Shown piece after piece: positions 9,668 to 35,253 of a DNA stretch of 64,000 bases; position 1 is the stretch's first letter; each line of letters opens with the position of its first letter. The notes beneath the pieces are model-generated. The model made no database searches. It was given only the letters and a program-made list of their open reading frames with translations, and was not told where the DNA came from. This DNA comes from a virus (Duplodnaviria > Caudoviricetes). The stretch covers positions 32,001-96,000 of IMG/VR virus record IMGVR_UViG_2630968332_000001, one strand, 5' to 3'. The translations under genes and the position numbers were made by a program.

Positions 9668-9731
9668 TTGACTTTTATTTTTTATATGGTATTATAATAT
9701 ATGTAAGTTAAGAGTTAAGAGAATAAACGAA
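9668..9731 (+). promoter_or_regulatory. Strong promoter of the RNA island with conserved leader motif
   Basis: TTGACT 9668-9673, TGgTATTATAAT 9687-9698, AGTTAAGAGTTAAGAGAATAAACGAA 9706-9731. Confidence 0.75.
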
Positions 9732-9812
9732 TAACTCAAAGCTACAACAAAACAATTAAATAAATCTGTTAAATATGTTGAACTTAATGTAATTGTCCTT
9801 ACGTGAGTCAAC

Positions 9813-10639: not shown

Positions 10640-11004
10640 AACTACATAAGGCAGCTTTGATTGTTGCTAAAGGGAACGGGTTGGTTTTTCACATCCTTTC
10701 AATAAATACAGATAATTAACCCCTATTTACTAATACGATACTGACACAGTTTTTCGTCCCGTTCTCTCTAGGAGCTATTAAAATGCTCTCCCAAAACAAG
10801 TCTACTATATGTTTAGAGTCTAGAGAATAAATGGTAGACATTTGGTATGTAAAATGTTGGACTGTCGGGAACACTATACCACACAAGCTAATATGCGGCT
10901 TTTACATACCACGCTCACAGACTTTAAAGGGAATGTGGGAGCGGATAGGCGAACGCGAATAGTGTAGTTAGTAAACCTATGCGTAATTATTTATCCTAGT
11001 TGGT

Positions 11005-11079
11005 AGTCATGTGGTGTATTCGGGTAACACGCTCGTCCTTGAAACGAGAGCAGTAAGGTTCAAGTCCTTGCTATGACAT
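11005..11079 (+). tRNA. tRNA-Gln(TTG), slightly atypical
   Basis: D arm GTGT..GGTA.ACAC, anticodon arm CTCGT-CCTTGAA-ACGAG, T loop GGTTCAAGTCC. Confidence 0.7.
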
Positions 11080-11182
11080 AGAGGTGGAAACACCTCGAAA
11101 CAAACATTTATTAATTCGTTCATTTTTTATTAGTTGATTAGGTTTTGCGTATTAATCAACACTCCTTTTTAAATTATTTTGG

Positions 11183-11236
11183 TTGCCACAGGTGCAGTAA
11201 AGGTGCATTTTATAGGTTCGACTCCTACTGTGGTAA
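11183..11236 (+). ncRNA. tRNA-like element lacking an anticodon arm
   Basis: TTGCCACAG/CTGTGGTAA stem, GTGCA..TGCAT hairpin, T arm TAGG-TTCGACT-CCTA. Confidence 0.55.
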
Positions 11237-11394
11237 TTGGGGTAGAGCATGACTACCCCGAAAGCACAATAACGGTAAGTGCATAGATTTGTGTAATTTT
11301 TTGACATTGAATCTGAATTAATTCATGAACAGGTTCATTACGACTTACGGATTGGTTCATGATTTAAGATTTCCTCCTTTTGAATTAGAAGGTT

Positions 11395-11454
11395 CGCAAC
11401 GTAGCTCAACTGGTAGAGCAAAGGATGATGTGGGTTCGAGTCCCACCGTTGCAA
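11395..11454 (+). ncRNA. tRNA-like element lacking an anticodon arm
   Basis: Acceptor CGCAACG/CGTTGCA, canonical D arm TAGCTCAACTGGTAGAGC, only 10 nt before T arm GTGGG-TTCGAGT-CCCAC. Confidence 0.7.
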
Positions 11455-11500
11455 TTAGCCAATATGGCTATAAATATACAATAGAAAAGAGGTGAGATAG

Positions 11501-12757
11501 ATGAAGACAATGAGTGAGTTAAAATACCACTATGGCTTGAAGATGTGTATTCACCCTAGCACGAAGCAAAAGCAAATCATTAAGATGAACAGTGATGTAT
11601 CTAGGGCTGTATATAACGCTATGGTTGCGATTGATAAAGAGTTGTATCAACTCAAACAGGTAAAACTACCTATTGATACAATCCAAACACGTATTGCTGA
11701 ATTAGAAAAACGTAAGAAGGCTCAAAACTATTTAGCAACGCACTATACTTACATGAAACACCCTTATATTGATAGTCATTGTCGTTCTATGGCAATGCGT
11801 TCTTATAAAGCTGCATGGAATATGTTTAGAAAAGTTCATAACGTTGGTACACCTAATTTTCATAAGAAAACTTACGAGGAGAAGTATCAAACAAGTGGAA
11901 CTTATACGAGTAAGAAGAAACCAGTTAATATGTGGACTGGCTCAATTAGATTTGTAGACAATAAACATATTAATATTCCTAAGCTGGGTATTATTCGTGT
12001 GAGTGGTTCGTATAGAAAACTACTAGATAATAAAGATGATATTAGAATTGGCACAACTACTATTTCTAAAAATGCTTTTGGTATCTACTACGTTTCTATG
12101 CAGTTGGGTTCAGATACACCTTTTGTTAAAGAATTGCCTAAAACTAATTCTCAAGTTGGAATCGACTTGAATACAGATAACTTCTTAACAACAAGCGAAG
12201 GTAATGTTATAGCTAACCCGAGATTTTATAGAACTATCAAGGGTCGATTGGCTAAAGCACAACGTAAATTATCACGCAGACAAGTTAGAGCCAAGAAAGA
12301 AGGACGCTCCTTACGTGATAGCAAGAATTACCAAAAGCAACGCATAGTGGTATCAAAACTTATGAATAAAGTGCGTAATCAACGTAATAAATTCTTAGAT
12401 GAAATGTCAATAACACTTATCAAGAACCACGATTTGGTTGTGGCTGAAAATCTAAGAAGTAAAAATATGTTGAGAAATCACGCTTTGGCTATGTCTATTA
12501 GTGATGTAGGTTGGAGAACATTCCTACAAAAACTAGAATACAAAGCTGAATTATATGGTAAGACTTTTGTTACTGTAAATCCTAAGAATACTACACAAAC
12601 ATGTAGCGAATGTGGGCATGTTATGGGAACAAAAGATACGGATAAGCTAACACTAAAAGATAGAAGTTGGGCTTGTCCTAGCTGTAATACTTACCATATA
12701 CGTGATGTAAATGCAGCAAAGAATATCCTAGACAAAGGATTAAAACAATTAGCCTAG
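11501..12757 (+). CDS. tnpB: IS200/IS605-family RNA-guided endonuclease TnpB (solo, no tnpA)
   Basis: N-terminal HTH, RuvC-I GIDLN, RuvC-II VAENL, Zn finger CSEC..CPSC, RuvC-III RDVNAAKNI; catalytic D/E/D intact. Confidence 0.93.
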   Translation: MKTMSELKYHYGLKMCIHPSTKQKQIIKMNSDVSRAVYNAMVAIDKELYQLKQVKLPIDTIQTRIAELEKRKKAQNYLATHYTYMKHPYIDSHCRSMAMRSYKAAWNMFRKVHNVGTPNFHKKTYEEKYQTSGTYTSKKKPVNMWTGSIRFVDNKHINIPKLGIIRVSGSYRKLLDNKDDIRIGTTTISKNAFGIYYVSMQLGSDTPFVKELPKTNSQVGIDLNTDNFLTTSEGNVIANPRFYRTIKGRLAKAQRKLSRRQVRAKKEGRSLRDSKNYQKQRIVVSKLMNKVRNQRNKFLDEMSITLIKNHDLVVAENLRSKNMLRNHALAMSISDVGWRTFLQKLEYKAELYGKTFVTVNPKNTTQTCSECGHVMGTKDTDKLTLKDRSWACPSCNTYHIRDVNAAKNILDKGLKQLA

Positions 12758-12936
12758 AAATAGGTAGTCCGTTTGTCTGTTGCGGACTCAAAAGCATTTG
12801 GTAATTACCATGTAAGACCTTTATTTCAGATTTTTCTGATACAAAGGCAACGGTGTATCTAATGAAATTTTGGCAACCCTAAAAAATTAGGAGTTCCCAA
12901 AACCCTAGTACTGTGGGATTTGTTAGTCTGTTTTTA
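12755..12936 (+). ncRNA. omega-RNA/tracr-like scaffold of TnpB
   Basis: Directly 3' of tnpB; hairpin AGTCCGT-ttgtctgtt-GCGGACT; RE-like hairpin CAAAACCC..GGGATTTG. Confidence 0.65.
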
Positions 12937-12938
12937 GT

Positions 12939-13155
12939 GTGTTACCCATATGTGCGTGGGGACAGACTGGAATACGTACAAACGATATACTCAAACTCAA
13001 GGTGTTACCCACATACGTGTGGGGCAGACTACGGCAAGTTTTTTAAAGACAATGAAGAATATGTGTTACCCATATGTGCGTGGGGACAGACTATATGTAG
13101 TTAAGAGTTTAGCGAACAAACGAAAGTGCTACTCATATGTGTCAAAGAACATATA
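12939..13155 (+). CRISPR. CRISPR-like mini-array: 3 repeats plus 1 degenerate, 3 spacers
   Basis: GTGTTACCCATATGTGCGTGGGGACAGACT at 12939-12968 and 13063-13092 (identical), variant 13002-13030, degenerate from 13126; unique spacers of 33, 32 and 33 nt; repeat hairpin. Confidence 0.88.
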
Positions 13156-13165
13156 GCTATATTTA

Positions 13166-13207
13166 CTCACCTCGGTAGTTCTGTTCTGGTTCAACTCCAG
13201 AAGTGAG
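13166..13207 (+). ncRNA. tRNA minihelix-like element (acceptor plus T arm)
   Basis: CTCAC/GTGAG stem stacked on TTCTGG-TTCAACT-CCAGAA. Confidence 0.4.
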
Positions 13208-13214
13208 CTTTGTA

Positions 13215-13612
13215 CCAACTCCTGATACACCTCTAATCAAGGCAAGACCGTTATGCGTCTTTTAATGTAGGACAGGTGCGGTACGGCATCTCATTAGTAC
13301 GTTACTCGAGGGTACGGAAGGTGTTTTGCAAGGGATATACTATGCCAAGTGTGGAGGTTGATTACCTCGCAGCAGATAGCTACTGTTGTCATACGTGCGA
13401 GCTTGGTGTGTGTAGTTAGATGTGCCGATTATTTAGTAAGTTATCTCAAAGTGGCGAGATGACTTTTTCGCTGGGGATAAGCCCAATCGTTTAGATATAT
13501 CCACCAGTTGCTTTAGCCAGTTATCCTCTCGTAGCAGTGGAGTTCTTTCGCCGAACTTGCTAGGGAACAGATTGTTGAGGCGAATGCAATTTAATGTTCG
13601 ATAACTGGTTAT
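13215..13612 (+). ncRNA. Candidate large structured RNA (GOLLD/ROOL-like context)
   Basis: About 400 nt, GC-richer than flanks, no credible ORF, many helices, abuts tRNA-Ser. Confidence 0.6.
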
Positions 13613-13616
13613 ATTT

Positions 13617-13706
13617 GGTAAGTTACTCAAGTTGGTGAAGAGGACTGTTTGCTAAACAGTTAGGTCTGCGATTGTGGACGCAAGGGTTCGAGTCCCTTAC
13701 TTACCG
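13617..13706 (+). tRNA. tRNA-Ser(GCT)
   Basis: GGTAAGT/ACTTACC acceptor, ACTGT-TTGCTAA-ACAGT, long variable arm, AAGGG-TTCGAGT-CCCTT, discriminator G. Confidence 0.92.
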
Positions 13707-14013
13707 TTAACAATTAAATATTAAAATTCGTGTGTATATAGGAACAAATCTGATTGTATTTATAATTTTGGTTTGTACAAACAAAAATCTTATAATATTT
13801 ATAATTATCTTATTGTTTTAGAACAAATTGCGACACCTCCTTTACTAAACCGCCCGCTTTTTGTCCTAACATGCAATTTTTAAAATAAAAGCCTGTGAGT
13901 GAAAGTAGCTACTGTTTTAAGCAAGTGCCCCGCTACTTAAATTTTTAAAAGTGAAATTTTAGCAAAACTAAAGCCAGATTTGTTCCTACATGCACACGAA
14001 TTAGAGAAAGAAG

Positions 14014-16699: not shown

Positions 16700-17257
16700 A
16701 TGGTTTACAATTCTAAACCACTTAGAACACAAGCCCAGATAGATGATGTGTTATTCTATTTAAGACGAACTCGTTATCCAGAACGTGATACATTCTTATT
16801 TTTGATTGGAATTAACACTGGGTTAAGATGTTCTGACATAGTGAAACTCAAAATAGGTACTTTAAGACATTCCAAGCGACCAGAAATCACAGAGAAGAAA
16901 ACTGGTAAAAAGAGAACGTTATTCCTAGACAATGTGCAAGATATTGTGCGTGATTATATCGAAGGCAAAGATGATAGTGAGTGGGCATTCCCATCTAGCT
17001 ATGATAAGAGCAAACATATAACGGTGCAGAATGTATATAAACTATTCAAACGAATTGATAATGAATTAGGTGGAATAGGTTTTACCACACACTCTATGAG
17101 AAGGACGTTCGGTTTGTGGTATTATCGTAAGACTAAAAACATATATTACTTGATGGAGTTGTTCAATCATTCCAGTCAAACCATCACCATGAGATATATC
17201 GGTCTTACGGAAGATGAGTTAGGGGACTCTTTAGAAGGGTTCAGAATAGGGTATTAA
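16700..17257 (+). CDS. Tyrosine recombinase (catalytic domain only)
   Basis: TGLRCSD, EKKTG, HSMRR, FNHSS, RYIG give the R-K-H-R-H-Y set. Confidence 0.9.
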   Translation: MVYNSKPLRTQAQIDDVLFYLRRTRYPERDTFLFLIGINTGLRCSDIVKLKIGTLRHSKRPEITEKKTGKKRTLFLDNVQDIVRDYIEGKDDSEWAFPSSYDKSKHITVQNVYKLFKRIDNELGGIGFTTHSMRRTFGLWYYRKTKNIYYLMELFNHSSQTITMRYIGLTEDELGDSLEGFRIGY

Positions 17258-22671: not shown

Positions 22672-22890
22672 GGTTTAGCACCTCCAAAGTATTGTTAAAA
22701 ATTCTCGGCACGAATTAACGGTATGTGCCTAAGCCCCACCACGCTCTCAAAAACGTGTGATAGCTCAAATCTGCTAATGTAAGGCGATTGACGTGACTAA
22801 TAAAGTACAATCCATTCATACCTTATTTTATATTGGTAGATTTATCTACCTATGACCTATTAACCTTTTACAATTAATAGACCCAGTGCA

Positions 22891-24730: not shown

Positions 24731-25011
24731 TAATTATCACCCAACTCAAATTCTACATTTTCAACGTGTTTGTAAGCGTCAAAATATAGCTCATTCTTGT
24801 CGCCATTATATGTTACTTCGTAATACATACCGTCTTCTATTGTGGTAGATAATAGTGCTTTGTTGTTTTGCAGCGTTCTGTTCAACCACACCACATACAC
24901 ACTATCGGTAGTAATAGCAACTGATGATTTAGTATTGGTTACATTAATTCCATTGTTATTGTAATCAACTACTTTTTCTTTACATAATTCTACAAATTCT
25001 TTATTATCCAT
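24730..25011 (-). CDS. Conserved phage protein (DUF6275-like)
   Basis: VYVVW..TLQNNKALLST..DGMYYEVTYNGDKNELYFDAYK. Confidence 0.75.
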   Translation of the reverse strand: MDNKEFVELCKEKVVDYNNNGINVTNTKSSVAITTDSVYVVWLNRTLQNNKALLSTTIEDGMYYEVTYNGDKNELYFDAYKHVENVEFELGDN

Positions 25012-28408: not shown

Positions 28409-29965
28409 CTGCTATATAAAATGTGGAATAATGTAGAACAATATTTATTAGTTCTACATTATTAGAAAGAAATATAGTTTTTCCTTTCCTAGATTTTATT
28501 TACTACCGTCAACAACAGTATTCCCATATCCTAATAAAAGGGTAATGACATTGACTGTCTCTGATAACCTAAGGGTGTAGCCCACCCCGTTGTATTTTTA
28601 TGCTACTAAATTCAATAAATTCATAACCGCATTTTCATCTCTATCCATAATCGAACCACATTCATAACAAATATATTCGTTATGTTTTGTTCCATGCTTA
28701 CGATTACCATTAAGACCAACTTTATCTTCGCCAGTCTTGATATATCCACATTCAGAACATCTTTGTGTGCTTGGATAATATTGGTCTGCTAAGACTATTT
28801 CCTTGCCATACCAGCCAGCTTTATAAACCAATACTTGTCTAAAAGTTCCAAATAATGACCTTTGTAAACCTTTAGAAGCAACGTGTGTCATCTGCATTTT
28901 CTTCACATCTAAATCTTCGATTACGATTTTGTCGTAATCACTTACTAATTTAGTTGTAAATTTATGAATAATATCATGTTGGATATTAGCCACTTTACGA
29001 TAATCACGTTGCAACTTGGCTCTCGTTTTAACGTAATTATTCGACTTAGTTGCTTTCTTTCCATTAACAACACGTTTTCTAGCTAACTGACGTTGGTAAT
29101 GTTTGATACGTTTATAGAGTTTCTTTAGATGATTAGGCAATGTATTAACTTTACCTTCGGTATAGTTAAAATGACCGACATTAATATCTACAGCTGTTTT
29201 CTTACCAGTTTTAGTTTTCTTGGTTATTTCAACTTCAAAAGGTAAACTAGCCCAATATTTACCGTTTTCACGATAAATTGATACAACTTTTAAATCACCA
29301 TCTAAACTCTTAGCGCCTTTAAAACTAATACCATACCAAGTTTTAACCCCACGAGGTTTATCAAGTCTTAACTTGCCATTAATAATCTTGGCTCTGTCAG
29401 TTTTAAAACCTTGTCTAGTAGCTTTCTTAGATTTAAATTTAGGTTTACCCCAGTCTGGCATAGCTTTATTAAAAAAGTTGCTCCATGCTTTACCTAAATC
29501 AGAAATCGCTAACTGTAAGCAACGAGGTGATAATTGATACTGCCAATCCTCTTTATTAGCTACTAACTCATCACGCACCTTGCGTTCGCTAGGTTTTAAC
29601 TTTTTATCATCTAAAATCAACGAACTATCATACATATCATTCCATAAAGCTAAGCCTTGATTCCAACAATATCTACGATAATCACATAAATCATCAAGAA
29701 CTTTCTTCATGGTTTTATTTGGATAAAGTCTTACCTTTTGCGTTCTAATCATATATATCACCACCTTGCTTCACAAAATTGATATAATAAATTTATCTTC
29801 TATATTATACTAACTTTAGAGAAGTAAGTCAAGATATATTCATGAAAAAATGAAGATGTTTTATGTTTTTGAATTCATTGTTTTTAAGCCTATTTCACAT
29901 TTTTACTCTTTCTAGTAGGCTCGTTGTTCTATATAGTTCTACATAATTCTATATTTTTGTTAACA
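28409..29965 (-). mobile_element. Non-autonomous IS607-family element (tnpB only); ends approximate
   Basis: TAGAA subterminal repeats at both ends (~29925-29955 and ~28430-28460); separates an SD and CTG from the MTase frame. Confidence 0.6.
28598..29764 (-). CDS. tnpB: IS607-type TnpB RNA-guided endonuclease
   Basis: MIRTQKVRLYPN, TAVDIN, VIEDLD, CSECG..CYECG, DRDENA; catalytic residues intact. Confidence 0.9.
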   Translation of the reverse strand: MVIYMIRTQKVRLYPNKTMKKVLDDLCDYRRYCWNQGLALWNDMYDSSLILDDKKLKPSERKVRDELVANKEDWQYQLSPRCLQLAISDLGKAWSNFFNKAMPDWGKPKFKSKKATRQGFKTDRAKIINGKLRLDKPRGVKTWYGISFKGAKSLDGDLKVVSIYRENGKYWASLPFEVEITKKTKTGKKTAVDINVGHFNYTEGKVNTLPNHLKKLYKRIKHYQRQLARKRVVNGKKATKSNNYVKTRAKLQRDYRKVANIQHDIIHKFTTKLVSDYDKIVIEDLDVKKMQMTHVASKGLQRSLFGTFRQVLVYKAGWYGKEIVLADQYYPSTQRCSECGYIKTGEDKVGLNGNRKHGTKHNEYICYECGSIMDRDENAVMNLLNLVA

Positions 29966-31669: not shown

Positions 31670-32323
31670 TCACCCCACATACACAATCATCACACCGTCT
31701 TCTGTGGTACTTATTTTAAATAGCCTTTCGTACTCTTCGATATACTTATAGACATAGTTCTTTTTAACCTGTGACTCGTTTGAATGATAATTCAAAATTT
31801 TCGTTTTAACACCTTTGCCAGTAAAGAAGTCTTCATAACCAAAAAGAGTGTATGGAATAATAGCTTTGGCTCTACCGTTTTTATCTATGTTGCGTAGTAT
31901 TTCACGTTCTATTTCATAAAAAATGTGTAAGTATTCCACACTGTACTCATCTTCAGACAATCTAAACATTTTACTTGCAGTAGTCCCAAAGCCATCAGCA
32001 TTTCGCCACGAGATATTAATTTCGTAATCATTGTTTACAAGTCTAAAAATCTCTGGTGTTATAACATCAAAGTCGTTATCATCATTGACTAAGATTTTGA
32101 TAAATCTTTCATAACATTCCAGTCCTTCGCTAAGATTGTGACCGATAGATTTATCAACAAACAGATTTTGCAACTTACAATAAGTAACATCAATTTCTTT
32201 TAACCCAATTTTTGCTGCTGCTTCAATTTGTTTAAGTGCCACATCTAGCAAATTGTCAATAATTATTTCTTTTCTTTTTCTATCTATTCTATTATCAAGA
32301 GTTTTTGTATAAAAAATACTCAT
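31670..32323 (-). CDS. Hypothetical protein (distant member of the next paralog set)
   Basis: IEAAAKIGLKE resembles MAKIGICA; SD GGAGGTG. Confidence 0.65.
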   Translation of the reverse strand: MSIFYTKTLDNRIDRKRKEIIIDNLLDVALKQIEAAAKIGLKEIDVTYCKLQNLFVDKSIGHNLSEGLECYERFIKILVNDDNDFDVITPEIFRLVNNDYEINISWRNADGFGTTASKMFRLSEDEYSVEYLHIFYEIEREILRNIDKNGRAKAIIPYTLFGYEDFFTGKGVKTKILNYHSNESQVKKNYVYKYIEEYERLFKISTTEDGVMIVYVG

Positions 32324-34945: not shown

Positions 34946-35009
34946 TTCGTTTATTCACTGAACTCTTAACTTAACTATTATATTATATCATATATTAATA
35001 TTAAATCAA
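34946..35009 (-). promoter_or_regulatory. Promoter with conserved leader motif and hairpin
   Basis: TTGATT..TGaTATAAT then AGTTAAGAGTTCAGTGAATAAACGAA. Confidence 0.7.
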
Positions 35010-35169
35010 GAATTAAACACAAAAAACCTCGCAGCAAAATACTACGAGGTCAAAAAGGTTTACAGTGTGTTATAATGTATCGTGGCGAAAGTTATAAAGA
35101 CGGTGGCTGACTTATTAGAAAGTGTGGTGTTGCCTATGCAATGCGAAACTAACGAAAGGAAAGCCATTT

Positions 35170-35253
35170 GTGTCTGTCTATCAAGCCTTGATGTTGACGT
35201 TAACATTCGGTATGTTCCTATTGGCATTACTGACATACATCAGCAAAAAGTAA
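35170..35253 (+). CDS. Holin-like type I toxin (BsrE/BsrH-like, 27 aa)
   Basis: MSVYQALMLTLTFGMFLLALLTYISKK; SD GAAAGGA; own promoter and terminator. Confidence 0.85.
   Translation: MSVYQALMLTLTFGMFLLALLTYISKK

Follow-up and report, generated by a model that had tools for sequence, protein, structure and literature searches.

Results

A tnpB gene, its scaffold RNA and a small array

The window analysed here, 64,000 nt from positions 32,001 to 96,000 of IMG/VR record IMGVR_UViG_2630968332_000001, is part of a 129-kb phage or phage-plasmid of Ligilactobacillus salivarius (G000 below), which over the 231 nt queried is 100% identical to pMP1046B, a PLSDB plasmid of L. salivarius strain JCM1046. 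An intact tnpB (418 aa) is followed, 181 nt downstream, by a CRISPR array of three good repeats of 29–30 nt and one degenerate repeat, which enclose spacers of 33, 32 and 33 nt (Table 1). The repeats form hairpins whose pairing is kept through compensatory changes. Spacers of this array are labelled A, and those of the array in the sister phage G002 are labelled C.

Table 1. Features of the tnpB–array locus and related sites, in window coordinates
Feature	Position	Strand	Description
Own copy of a spacer 3-like site	9699..9732	+	Start of the transcript behind a TTGACT...TATAAT promoter
tRNA-like element	11395..11454	+	Just upstream of tnpB; Rfam tRNA, 46.1 bits; ARAGORN calls no tRNA
tnpB	11501..12757	+	418 aa, IS200/IS605 OrfB family RNA-guided nuclease
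omegaRNA-type scaffold	12706..12930	+	Begins inside the tnpB 3′ end; homologous to right-end RNA of array-less TnpB relatives
Repeat 1	12939..12968	+	30 nt, hairpin
Spacer 1 (A1)	12969..13001	+	Encodes GIRTNDILKLK, a tyrosine-recombinase Arg-box peptide
Repeat 2	13002..13030	+	29 nt; variant, compensatory stem changes CCCACA/TGTGGG
Spacer 2 (A2)	13031..13062	+	No source found
Repeat 3	13063..13092	+	Identical to repeat 1
Spacer 3 (A3)	13093..13125	+	Matches the promoter-proximal leader of siblings G001, G002 and L124 at 29/32
Terminal repeat, degenerate	13126..13155	+	Also in G002
Own tyrosine recombinase	16700..17257	+	185 aa, Pfam Phage_integrase, E 1.6e-21

The TnpB protein carries, above cut-offs, the domains PF01385 (OrfB_IS605), PF07282 (Cas12f1-like TNB) and PF12323 (HTH_OrfB) together with a CxxC...CxxC zinc ribbon, and ISDra2-type TnpB structures match it at E 1.3e-35. 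The counterparts of D222, E316 and D402 in a 408-aa TnpB-type chain are residues 191, 278 and 361, which we take, following the ISDra2 literature, to be the catalytic RuvC positions, and the triad is intact. Judged by these residues, the domesticated TnpB is presumably a catalytically intact nuclease. Y1 TnpA (PF01797) is absent from G000–G002 and occurs in G003 only beside other tnpB copies; the similarity between G000 and G003 begins at the ribosome-binding site, so the tnpB module has no shared left end, and the set of features expected of a mobile IS200/IS605 transposon (Y1 TnpA, ends, several copies) was not found. The tRNA-like element upstream of tnpB is possibly a processing signal.

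Aligning nine sequences predicts 28 base pairs in the scaffold, and compensatory changes are seen at 11 of these. Homologous scaffolds, but no arrays, accompany TnpB relatives of about 60% identity and a paralogue in G003. An RNA-library contig of 281 nt (X16) covers positions 12708–12960, continues into the end of the repeat and then into 18 nt of a first spacer; it counts as weak evidence, as RNA ends cannot be read from contigs, and those parts of the window that are without cover in RNA runs X15, X16 and X20 are not evidence of silence. An anti-repeat was sought in the scaffold by comparing duplex energies with shuffles, and none was significant, the best scaffold–repeat duplex (−21.8 kcal/mol) being equalled or beaten by 14% of shuffled repeats. 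Neither of two candidate origins of the repeats stood out from chance: a comparison with the E. coli K-12 I-E repeat scored within shuffles (at least 270/2000), and one with the omegaRNA 3′ hairpin of the G003 paralogue remained within shuffle controls.

Conservation of the module among relatives

The tnpB products of G001–G003 are 93–98% identical to that of the window at the amino acid level, and a metagenome contig, L124, is about 88% identical at the nucleotide level over 4.6 kb. All 15 fully read spacers of G000–G003 differ from each other, as does the first spacer of L124 (25 nt), and further first spacers were found in a DNA contig (X1) and in the RNA-library contig. Close relatives thus differ in their spacers but agree in the repeats and in the sequence upstream, as in a CRISPR array. 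Spacer lengths are uniform (32–34 nt over the 15 spacers), and the spacer sets are wholly different between phages that are 92–94% identical. The 180-kb phage G003 has only 8,858 of its 180,095 nt in common with G000, but tnpB, scaffold and array are joined there in the same way. The tnpB gene and the downstream array are therefore kept as a unit in G000–G002, in L124 and in the otherwise unrelated G003. In the latter, the first spacer lies directly after the terminal hairpin of the scaffold, with this hairpin in place of the first repeat. Cas1 (PF01867) was found in none of the four phage records, with a control positive in 7 of 14 genomes; Cas6e was likewise missing from all four, with a control positive in only 1 of 14 genomes.

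Which machinery reads such an array? A host Cascade–Cas3 complex might use it against the same targets, with tnpB a domesticated IS remnant that works with its own fixed guide only. The format is indeed that of type I-E, with 29–30-nt hairpin repeats, 32–33-nt spacers and the AAT flanks described below, and the available part of a report on the type I-E system of L. salivarius gives a 29-bp repeat, 32-bp spacers and a validated 5′-AAT-3′ PAM (PMC11288051). The failure to find an anti-repeat also fits this possibility, as does the junction in G000–G002, where 8 nt separate the homologous 3′ end of the scaffold (12930) from repeat 1, so that a classical omegaRNA would have the leader/repeat junction as its guide. 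Against Cascade as the reader, however, tnpB, scaffold and array have moved together into an otherwise unrelated 180-kb phage, the first spacer of G003 directly adjoins the scaffold hairpin, and the RNA-library contig runs from the scaffold through repeat 1 into 18 nt of spacer. For JCM1046, which stably carries the replicon, the 2014 description reports, in the part available, one CRISPR-Cas locus only, with 36-bp repeats and no type I-E (PMC4165912); in this strain only the phage's own TnpB could then read the array. A gapped repeat pattern revealed no array in 185,579 species genomes, only three single chance-like matches, and among eight single matches in metagenomes only L124 was a true relative. 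An exact search for repeat 1 in IMG/VR gave no match, because relatives differ by 1–2 bases. A TnpB-derived effector with I-E-like repeats also has a precedent in Cas12r of the Lalka phages, according to the available part of a preprint (bioRxiv 10.64898/2026.04.20.719267). We consider a Cascade-read array unlikely, yet it is the strongest competitor to a TnpB-read one.

Spacer 1 resembles the Arg box of a tyrosine recombinase family

Spacer 1, GGAATACGTACAAACGATATACTCAAACTCAAG (window 12969–13001), translates in frame 0 to GIRTNDILKLK, as an initial sequence-only reading had stated. That reading had aligned the peptide with GLRCSDIVKLK of the phage's own recombinase, and rightly so: the motif spans residues 41–51 (window 16820–16852), matches spacer 1 at 7 of 11 residues and includes R43, which does not vary among 24 aligned family members. 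At the DNA level the two agree at 19 of 33 positions and the own site has the flank ACT, which supports the further claim that the phage's own gene is too diverged to be targeted.

How far can this similarity be trusted? When the best six-frame BLOSUM62 score against the whole 129-kb genome was taken as the measure, 18 of 400 reversed-genome 33-mers and 17 of 400 spacer shuffles reached the cut-off of at least 38, corresponding to p of about 0.045 for one spacer and about 0.13 for any of three. The own-genome similarity is real but marginal, and is not significant without family-level evidence.

Such evidence comes from a subfamily of 58 recombinases of 199–208 aa, given by their sources as L. 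salivarius proteins (WP_161023162.1, WP_289583515.1 and WP_172412373.1 are examples of these L. salivarius recombinases). The peptide GIRTGDIVKLK, identical to that of spacer 1 at 9 of 11 positions, is present in 48 of the 58; the exact spacer 1 peptide occurs in none of them, Asn5 and Leu8 are never found together, and 9/11 is the best match. We also compared spacer 1 with 79 related viral recombinase loci (about 7 kb per locus, both strands), and in 45 of these its best DNA match fell in frame on the Arg box. The top match among these loci, 25/33, was reached by 1 of 200 random 33-mers. Spacer C3 of G002 encodes HSSQAITMRY, which is found 10/10 in 17 of the 58 subfamily proteins as their catalytic His/Tyr motif; the homologous site in the window's own recombinase lies at about 17168–17199. 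Both spacer peptides thus coincide with catalytic motifs, A1 covering the invariant R43 and C3 the invariant H157, S158 and Y166 (numbered on the window's recombinase, with invariance taken from the 24-sequence alignment). This preference may be an ascertainment effect, since only conserved segments are recognisable at the protein level. In the L. salivarius subfamily an Asn codon (AAY) stands directly before both the A1 and the C3 site, a flank deduced from the protein sequences, in which Asn makes up 5.5% of residues. Spacer B2 was considered as a third recombinase spacer and rejected, its peptide KRLDKEKAAA scoring 20 against the own KRIDNELGGI, within noise.

A different origin of spacer 1, with the resemblance to recombinases due to chance, would agree with the modest own-genome p value per spacer, with the motif having been noticed after the fact and with the lack of a DNA protospacer in any collection searched. 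This we regard as very improbable, given that the match improves in the wider family at both the peptide and the DNA level, that an independent spacer from a sister array matches the same subfamily perfectly, and that an Asn codon at each flank agrees with the AAT rule set out below.

The near-perfect DNA match in an integrase gene that had been anticipated for blastn-type searches was not obtained for spacer 1 in any collection. GenBank phages returned noise only (E about 4) and PLSDB plasmids the own record and noise; IMG/VR held nothing with the first 20 nt, nor with a pattern left free at every third base, and the latter pattern also found nothing in the 185,579 species genomes or in JGI metagenomes. 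The arrays of G001, G002 and G003 had no significant match in GenBank phages, and IMG/VR, searched with spacer 3 (its first 24 nt) and with C3 at free third bases, gave nothing, or G002 itself only. Across G000–G003, 11 of 15 spacers are without a recognisable source, and the share that targets recombinases may hence be inflated by ascertainment. A search for P0055-like genes gave best identities of 39% in IMG/VR, 52% in PLSDB (L. fermentum plasmids) and about 40% in GenBank phages, and by this search the L. salivarius subfamily is absent from all three collections. Its members sit on contigs mostly of 4.5–14 kb, for which reason the rival looks small and plasmid-like or satellite-like. The proposal that the array targets a rival's recombinase is thus supported by the 9/11 peptide match, the 45 of 79 loci, the perfect C3 match and the Asn flanks, but of the rivals envisaged there, a related phage or plasmid, the phage gives way to a small plasmid- or satellite-like element as the likelier one. 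In substance, the comparisons support a derivation of spacer 1 from a rival element's homologue of the phage's own tyrosine recombinase. The source gene would most likely be a distant homologue (about 45% aa identity) of that recombinase, residing on another small element of the same host species.

Sibling phages as probable targets and predicted sparing of the phage itself

Other spacers match sibling phages at the DNA level. Spacer 3 agrees at 29 of 32 positions with G001, G002 and L124, the first 17 nt being perfect, and C5 matches G001 at 30 of 32 positions with a 2-nt gap. The DNA-verified flanks, each ending at the protospacer, are TATAAT for A3 and TAAAAT for C5; AAT occurs at a per-site frequency of 3.3%. 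Each of the four protospacers that are known or inferred (A1, C3, A3 and C5) is preceded by 5′-AAT/AAY, and matches to foreign sequence with a consistent flank are therefore present at the DNA level for A3 and C5 and at the protein level for A1 and C3.

The phage has its own copy of the site resembled by spacer 3, downstream of a promoter with its −35 element at 9668–9673 and its −10 element at 9693–9698. Relative to spacer 3, this copy has a 1-nt insertion at base 8 and 3–4 mismatches. Taken together, the own sites differ from the spacers by a 19/33 match with flank ACT, by a 1-nt insertion in the seed, and by a 24/32 match with five mismatches in the first 9 nt. Divergence of this extent, or an indel, would keep the phage from cutting itself. 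Siblings and the L. salivarius subfamily are matched better than self.

It is conceivable that the partial matches are themselves functional, the guides directing TnpB to the recombinase gene and promoter leaders of the phage itself and so tuning their expression. Spacer 3 resembles at least five own promoter-leader sites at 23–24/33, A1 and C3 are similar to the phage's own recombinase gene, and nuclease-dead TnpB relatives that act as RNA-guided transcription factors have been published, as the available part of that work describes (bioRxiv 10.1101/2023.11.30.569447). But the RuvC triad is intact here, the self-matches are poor exactly in the PAM-proximal bases and inferior to the foreign ones, and complete spacer turnover between phages 92–94% identical would be unexpected for a fixed regulator, and we give self-directed regulation hardly any credence. 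We similarly discount a fossil array without present function, left behind as the omegaRNA end transposed or duplicated time and again, with former flanks as spacers: serial duplication of omegaRNA segments is a published route to de novo arrays (PMC10691335, in the part available) and the G003 scaffold hairpin stands where the first repeat would be, but the uniform length of 15 spacers, the consistent AAT flank, the lack of a transposase and of a left end, the wholly different spacers in near-identical phages and the preserved pairing of the repeat hairpins all speak against it.

Discussion

Our analyses revealed a domesticated TnpB whose scaffold and array travel together, a spacer resembling the catalytic Arg box of a recombinase family, and further spacers matching sibling phages. 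We propose the following model, to which as a whole we assign a probability of about 0.7. The omegaRNA scaffold of the domesticated TnpB would run into the small CRISPR array, and spacer 1 would have been acquired from the Arg-box region of a tyrosine recombinase gene of about 200 aa carried by another small element. The array would serve conflict between mobile elements, a view suggested by the other spacers of the array family, which match the same recombinase family and sibling phages. Phage TnpB probably reads the guides, of which roughly the first 16–20 nt next to the repeat would be used. Cutting of the rival's recombinase gene, or of the sibling's early promoter region, would then exclude the rival or the sibling.

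Where do the spacers come from? We lean slightly towards insertion of new spacers by the type I-E Cas1–Cas2 of I-E-positive host strains. The combined proposition, in which host I-E Cas1–Cas2 fill the array and phage TnpB reads the guides in any host, is more speculative and we offer it tentatively, as a possibility less probable than either of its parts. Filling by the host machinery would explain the AAT flank, the 32–33-nt spacers and the fast turnover. If this division of labour were true, the TAM of TnpB would have converged on AAT, and the system would also work in I-E-free strains such as JCM1046. The phage-plasmid would remove small resident plasmid-like or satellite-like elements by cuts in their recombinase genes, and sibling phages would be excluded at the promoter of their own tnpB–array operon, with self-protection afforded by a 1-nt indel. 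In a bolder form of this idea, the same crRNAs would serve both Cascade and TnpB.

Known systems that the locus resembles are Cas12r-CRISPR, from Thermus Lalka phages, and TranC. As described by Trofimova et al. in the available part of their preprint (bioRxiv 10.64898/2026.04.20.719267), Cas12r is a phage-borne, TnpB-derived effector beside a short array with 29-bp, I-E-like hairpin repeats and 31–33-nt spacers. As here, adaptation genes are missing, spacer sets differ between siblings and the PAM overlaps that of the host I-E system, whose adaptation machinery is proposed to be used; the spacers target the host's other mobile elements, integrative elements with integrases like the phage's own. 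By the same source, Cas12r has 564 aa, whereas the TnpB described here is unexpanded at 418 aa and keeps a full omegaRNA scaffold in common with array-less relatives. The PAM is ARG there and AAT here, and the host in our case is a mesophilic member of the Lactobacillales. Two spacers of the present array family, moreover, lie within the recombinase gene itself while others are directed at sibling phages. The likeness is one of description, our system being known from sequence alone.

TranC systems, transposon–CRISPR intermediates attributed to Jin et al. (Cell 2025), are described in the available part of a preprint that also has the phage-borne CauTranC9 (bioRxiv 10.64898/2026.03.27.714800). 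By these partial accounts they share with our locus a TnpB-sized RuvC nuclease, a downstream array and a scaffold that goes back to the right-end RNA of the transposon, and some of them reside on phages and have anti-phage spacers (superinfection exclusion). Their repeats, however, measure 32–38 bp, as opposed to 29–30 bp in I-E format here, the likeness to LaTranC extends only to the C-terminal RuvC and zinc ribbon (residues 282–411, E 4.9e-23), and no tracrRNA-type anti-repeat was detected in our scaffold. The type V-U* groups (Altae-Tran et al., PNAS 2023, PMC10691335) are similar, as far as the available part of that paper goes, in having a short array at the omegaRNA position downstream of a TnpB-like gene, in lacking a cas1/2/4 adaptation module and in their occurrence on plasmids and viruses. 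The L. salivarius type I-E system is alike in its 29-bp hairpin repeat, 32-bp spacers and 5′-AAT-3′ motif, a comparison of format and not of repeat sequence drawn from the accessible part of PMC11288051; the phages here, tested for Cas1 and Cas6e, differ in apparently being without Cascade, Cas3, Cas1 and Cas2.

Phage-encoded spacers directed at a parasitic or competing element, or at sibling viruses, form a broader theme into which the present array falls. Cas-less viral mini-arrays are aimed at related viruses and rely wholly on host Cas proteins, and phage ICP1's CRISPR-Cas of type I-F reportedly acts against the PLE satellite of Vibrio cholerae. ICP1 has a complete Cas set, whereas here a TnpB gene stands beside the array.

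What would such a system mean for L. salivarius and its mobile elements? The locus points to mobile elements waging war on one another, in a manner that has only lately been described. It opens to direct test, in a harmless bacterium that can be cultivated, the recent proposal of minimal TnpB-derived CRISPR systems in phages, of their borrowing of type I-E adaptation and of their use against mobile elements. Candidate targets can be named in the recombinase carried by small elements of L. salivarius and in sibling phages' early promoter leader, and the candidate PAM, AAT, equals the experimentally validated I-E PAM of the host. With an unexpanded TnpB, a complete omegaRNA scaffold and array-less relatives, the locus offers a good natural snapshot of the passage from transposon nuclease to CRISPR effector. 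The replicon published as a ‘chromid’ megaplasmid, stable in JCM1046, would on this evidence be a phage-like element armed against its neighbours.

Results

The first spacer of the array that follows tnpB in this phage translates as GIRTNDILKLK, matching GLRCSDIVKLK at residues 41-51 of the phage's own tyrosine recombinase (ORF 16700-17257, 185 aa, Phage_integrase family) at 7 of 11 residues and 19 of 33 nt, and covers R43, which is invariant in a 24-member recombinase alignment; the sequence-only reading of spacer 1 as encoding a recombinase active-site motif is upheld. Taken alone, this match is weak: in six-frame comparison with the phage's own genome it was equalled or beaten by 18 of 400 33-mers drawn from the reversed genome and by 17 of 400 shuffled versions of the spacer. 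Querying 5.8 billion proteins with the recombinase returned 194 relatives; among the 120 listed, GIRTGDIVKLK occurs in at least 13 and GIRISDILKLK in at least 6, each agreeing with the spacer peptide at 9 of 11 positions. When both strands of 79 IMG/VR recombinase loci (268 kb) were compared with spacer 1, the highest-scoring gap-free DNA alignment fell in frame on the catalytic Arg box in 45 loci. Its top match there, 25/33, was reached by 1 of 200 random 33-mers, and the other 14 spacers of the array family, compared as 32-mers, attained maxima of 20-23.

The main support for this origin, which we regard as decisive, comes from spacer C3 in the array of the sister phage G002. C3 translates as HSSQAITMRY, with two extra bases compatible with Ile, and covers the invariant H157, S158 and Y166; its peptide is identical at 10 of 10 positions to P0055, a member of the subfamily best matching spacer 1, and at 9 of 10 to the phage's own recombinase. 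GIRTGDIVKLK is present in 48 of the 58 subfamily members read, and exact HSSQAITMRY in 17. The subfamily shares ~45% identity with the enzyme of the phage itself, nearly all its source-named members are labelled 'tyrosine-type recombinase/integrase [Ligilactobacillus salivarius]' (one partial is labelled Bacillus subtilis), and its contigs are mostly 4.5-14 kb, one being 92 kb. Since each spacer matches this subfamily at a catalytic motif, the two spacers, from two phages, most likely derive from a single recombinase family of the host species they share, one from each of its two catalytic motifs. The source first proposed for spacer 1, a rival element's recombinase homologue, agrees with these matches, and the phage's own gene is probably too diverged to be targeted, its Arg-box site having 14 mismatches and the flank ACT. 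G002's own His/Tyr site has the flank AAT and 5 mismatches to C3 in the first 9 nt. No recognisable source was found for 11 of the 15 spacers of the four phages (this phage, G000, and G001-G003), and the proportion aimed at recombinases may be inflated by ascertainment bias, as such spacers are recognisable at conserved motifs only.

Spacer 3 matches the sister phages G001 and G002 and a metagenome contig (L124) at 29 of 32 nt, the first 17 perfectly. In the siblings the -10 box of a strong promoter immediately precedes this site, hence the flank TATAAT; at base 8 the phage's own copy (9699-9732) carries 1 extra nt. Near-identical leaders, AGTTAAGAGTTnAGnGAAnAAAC, stand immediately behind TTGACT/TATAAT promoters in at least five places in the phage, and spacer 3 represents a variant of that motif. 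For spacer C5 of G002 the matches are to G001 (30/32, 2-nt gap) and to L124, at a site ~100 nt upstream of tnpB flanked by TAAAAT. The trinucleotide AAT has a frequency of 3.3% per position. The L. salivarius recombinase subfamily has Asn, 5.5% of residues, before both spacer sites (GINN before GIRT, IFN before HSSQ), and from these codons we infer an AAY flank at both. L. salivarius type I-E is described as having repeats of 29 bp, spacers of 32 bp and the PAM 5'-AAT-3', confirmed by experiment (PMC11288051); judged by these values, the array corresponds to host I-E in its repeat and spacer format and in its AAT flanks.

Features of the tnpB-array locus and the leader family (window positions unless stated)
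Feature	Position	Length	Annotation
tnpB	11501-12757	418 aa	Pfam OrfB_IS605, Cas12f1-like TNB, HTH
Repeat 1	12939-12968
Spacer 1 (A1)	12969-13001
Repeat 2	13002-13030
Spacer 2 (A2)	13031-13062
Repeat 3	13063-13092
Spacer 3 (A3)	13093-13125
Terminal repeat	13126-13155		degenerate
Leader family	565-590, 9706-9731, 34946-34971 (-); G000 24895-24927 (outside the window)

The TnpB aligns with TnpB structures (E 1.3e-35), its acidic triad D222/E316/D402 aligned and its zinc ribbon intact. Between tnpB and the array lie 181 nt; the alignment of the scaffold, the omegaRNA-type right-end RNA of tnpB, has 28 pairs, 11 with compensatory changes. In one metatranscriptome, a 281-nt RNA contig covers 12708-12960 and continues through the repeat 1 end into 18 nt of a first spacer; its depth exceeds that of a contig inside tnpB from that run. 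Contigs as such reveal neither where an RNA ends nor whether DNA was present. No strong plus-strand promoter was found at 11000-14000, so a promoter at ~9668-9698 may drive tRNA-like elements, tnpB and array, in which case the spacer 3 target in the siblings would be the start of that same operon. One tRNA-like element (11395-11454; Rfam tRNA, 46 bits; no ARAGORN call) lies directly upstream of tnpB, and in the 180-kb phage G003 a T-arm-like GGTTCGATTCC immediately precedes the array-linked tnpB (L098, about 2440-2480); such elements may direct processing of the transcript of tnpB and array. Between array and tRNA-Ser (13616-13707) is an ORF-free, GC-richer stretch (13210-13612) matching no Rfam family at gathering score. 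At least its first ~150 nt are kept in G002, in the part compared; G001 lacks it, repeat 4 being followed directly by sequence like the 3' part of tRNA-Ser.

TnpB-based searches found G001 (126.5 kb) and G002 (127.3 kb), both 92-94% identical to this phage over about 109 kb, L124, and G003, which has only 8,858 nt in common with it. In all of them tnpB is accompanied by this scaffold and by an array in the same position. No two of the 15 spacers, 32-34 nt long, are alike, and other first spacers appear in contigs of public sequencing runs. The G003 repeat is a variant form whose stem changes compensate one another, and the first G003 spacer directly follows the scaffold's own terminal hairpin. 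A homologous scaffold that ends in a hairpin and GTTGAC, then flank, is present without an array in TnpB relatives (~60% identity) and in a G003 paralogue. Neither Cas1 nor Cas6e was found in any of the four phages, nor a Y1 transposase in G000-G002, and upstream the G000-G003 similarity starts only at the ribosome-binding site. These features rule out a mobile transposon and identify the locus, by comparison, as a domesticated TnpB with an array. TnpB-family genes number 3 in this phage and 9 in G003; a second, unrelated one (384 aa, PHROG transposase), together with an Rfam 'Transposase-1 RNA' match at 28509-28567, lies at 28509-29752 (minus strand), and the one other copy inspected, the G003 paralogue, is followed by no array. 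A 94-nt 'direct terminal repeat' of G002 (L105 1-94; L111 end) was rejected as a physical end; it falls within the CRISPR array, which indicates that the assembly of a circular or permuted genome overlaps itself there.

The virus record (129,218 bp, scored complete by CheckV), of which the window takes in bases 32001-96000, encodes a phage DNA polymerase, tail protein, endolysin and DNA ligase. A 231-nt query from it agreed at 100% with plasmid pMP1046B of L. salivarius JCM1046 (PLSDB; NZ_CP007648.1), which is equally long and was described in 2014 as a circular megaplasmid and 'putative chromid' (PMC4165912). Given the phage genes and completeness score, this replicon is probably a large phage, phage-plasmid or carried phage. 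Vagococcus and Enterococcus may harbour related phage-plasmids: 'plasmids' of 111-135 kb from these genera code for 53-58% homologues of the mini recombinase (P0025, P0026, P0029; PLSDB NZ_CP081467.1 and others). Further Rfam matches in the phage are Listeria sRNA rli28 (65 bits, 35061-35240, plus strand) and salivarius-1 RNA (56 bits, 22731-22785, minus strand).

Discussion

Sequence comparison establishes the anatomy and linkage of the locus, that its scaffold is conserved, that spacers turn over, and what their targets and flank are, and we propose the following model. The phage TnpB would use the array's guides, a reading to which we assign a probability of about 0.6: the whole module has passed together into an unrelated phage; by report JCM1046 lacks type I-E, the sole CRISPR-Cas locus given in its genome paper being chromosomal with 36-bp repeats (PMC4165912); the 281-nt RNA contig joins the region ahead of the array to a first spacer, which weakly favours it; and an analogous Thermus phage system works. 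The main rival, that host Cascade reads an array built to the host's own I-E format, seems to us unlikely on the same evidence; no anti-repeat was found in the scaffold, which counts against TnpB as effector. Also against the model, resemblance of the repeat to the E. coli K-12 I-E repeat and to the omegaRNA 3' end of a paralogue did not exceed shuffle controls. New spacers would be inserted in I-E-positive strains by the host type I-E Cas1-Cas2, a step we favour slightly over its alternatives, and cutting would exclude small recombinase-bearing elements and sibling phages.

The closest described system, Cas12r-CRISPR of the Lalka phages, shown functional in Thermus phages, follows the same logic, its targets being, like the probable target of spacer 1, elements with integrases resembling the phage's own (bioRxiv 10.64898/2026.04.20.719267). 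The wider class includes TranC systems, one of them phage-borne and TnpB-sized (bioRxiv 10.64898/2026.03.27.714800), and the V-U* groups (PMC10691335). The particular value of the present locus is that two spacers lead to a named gene family of the same host, that the flank is the validated host PAM, and that the carrier strain is cultivable.
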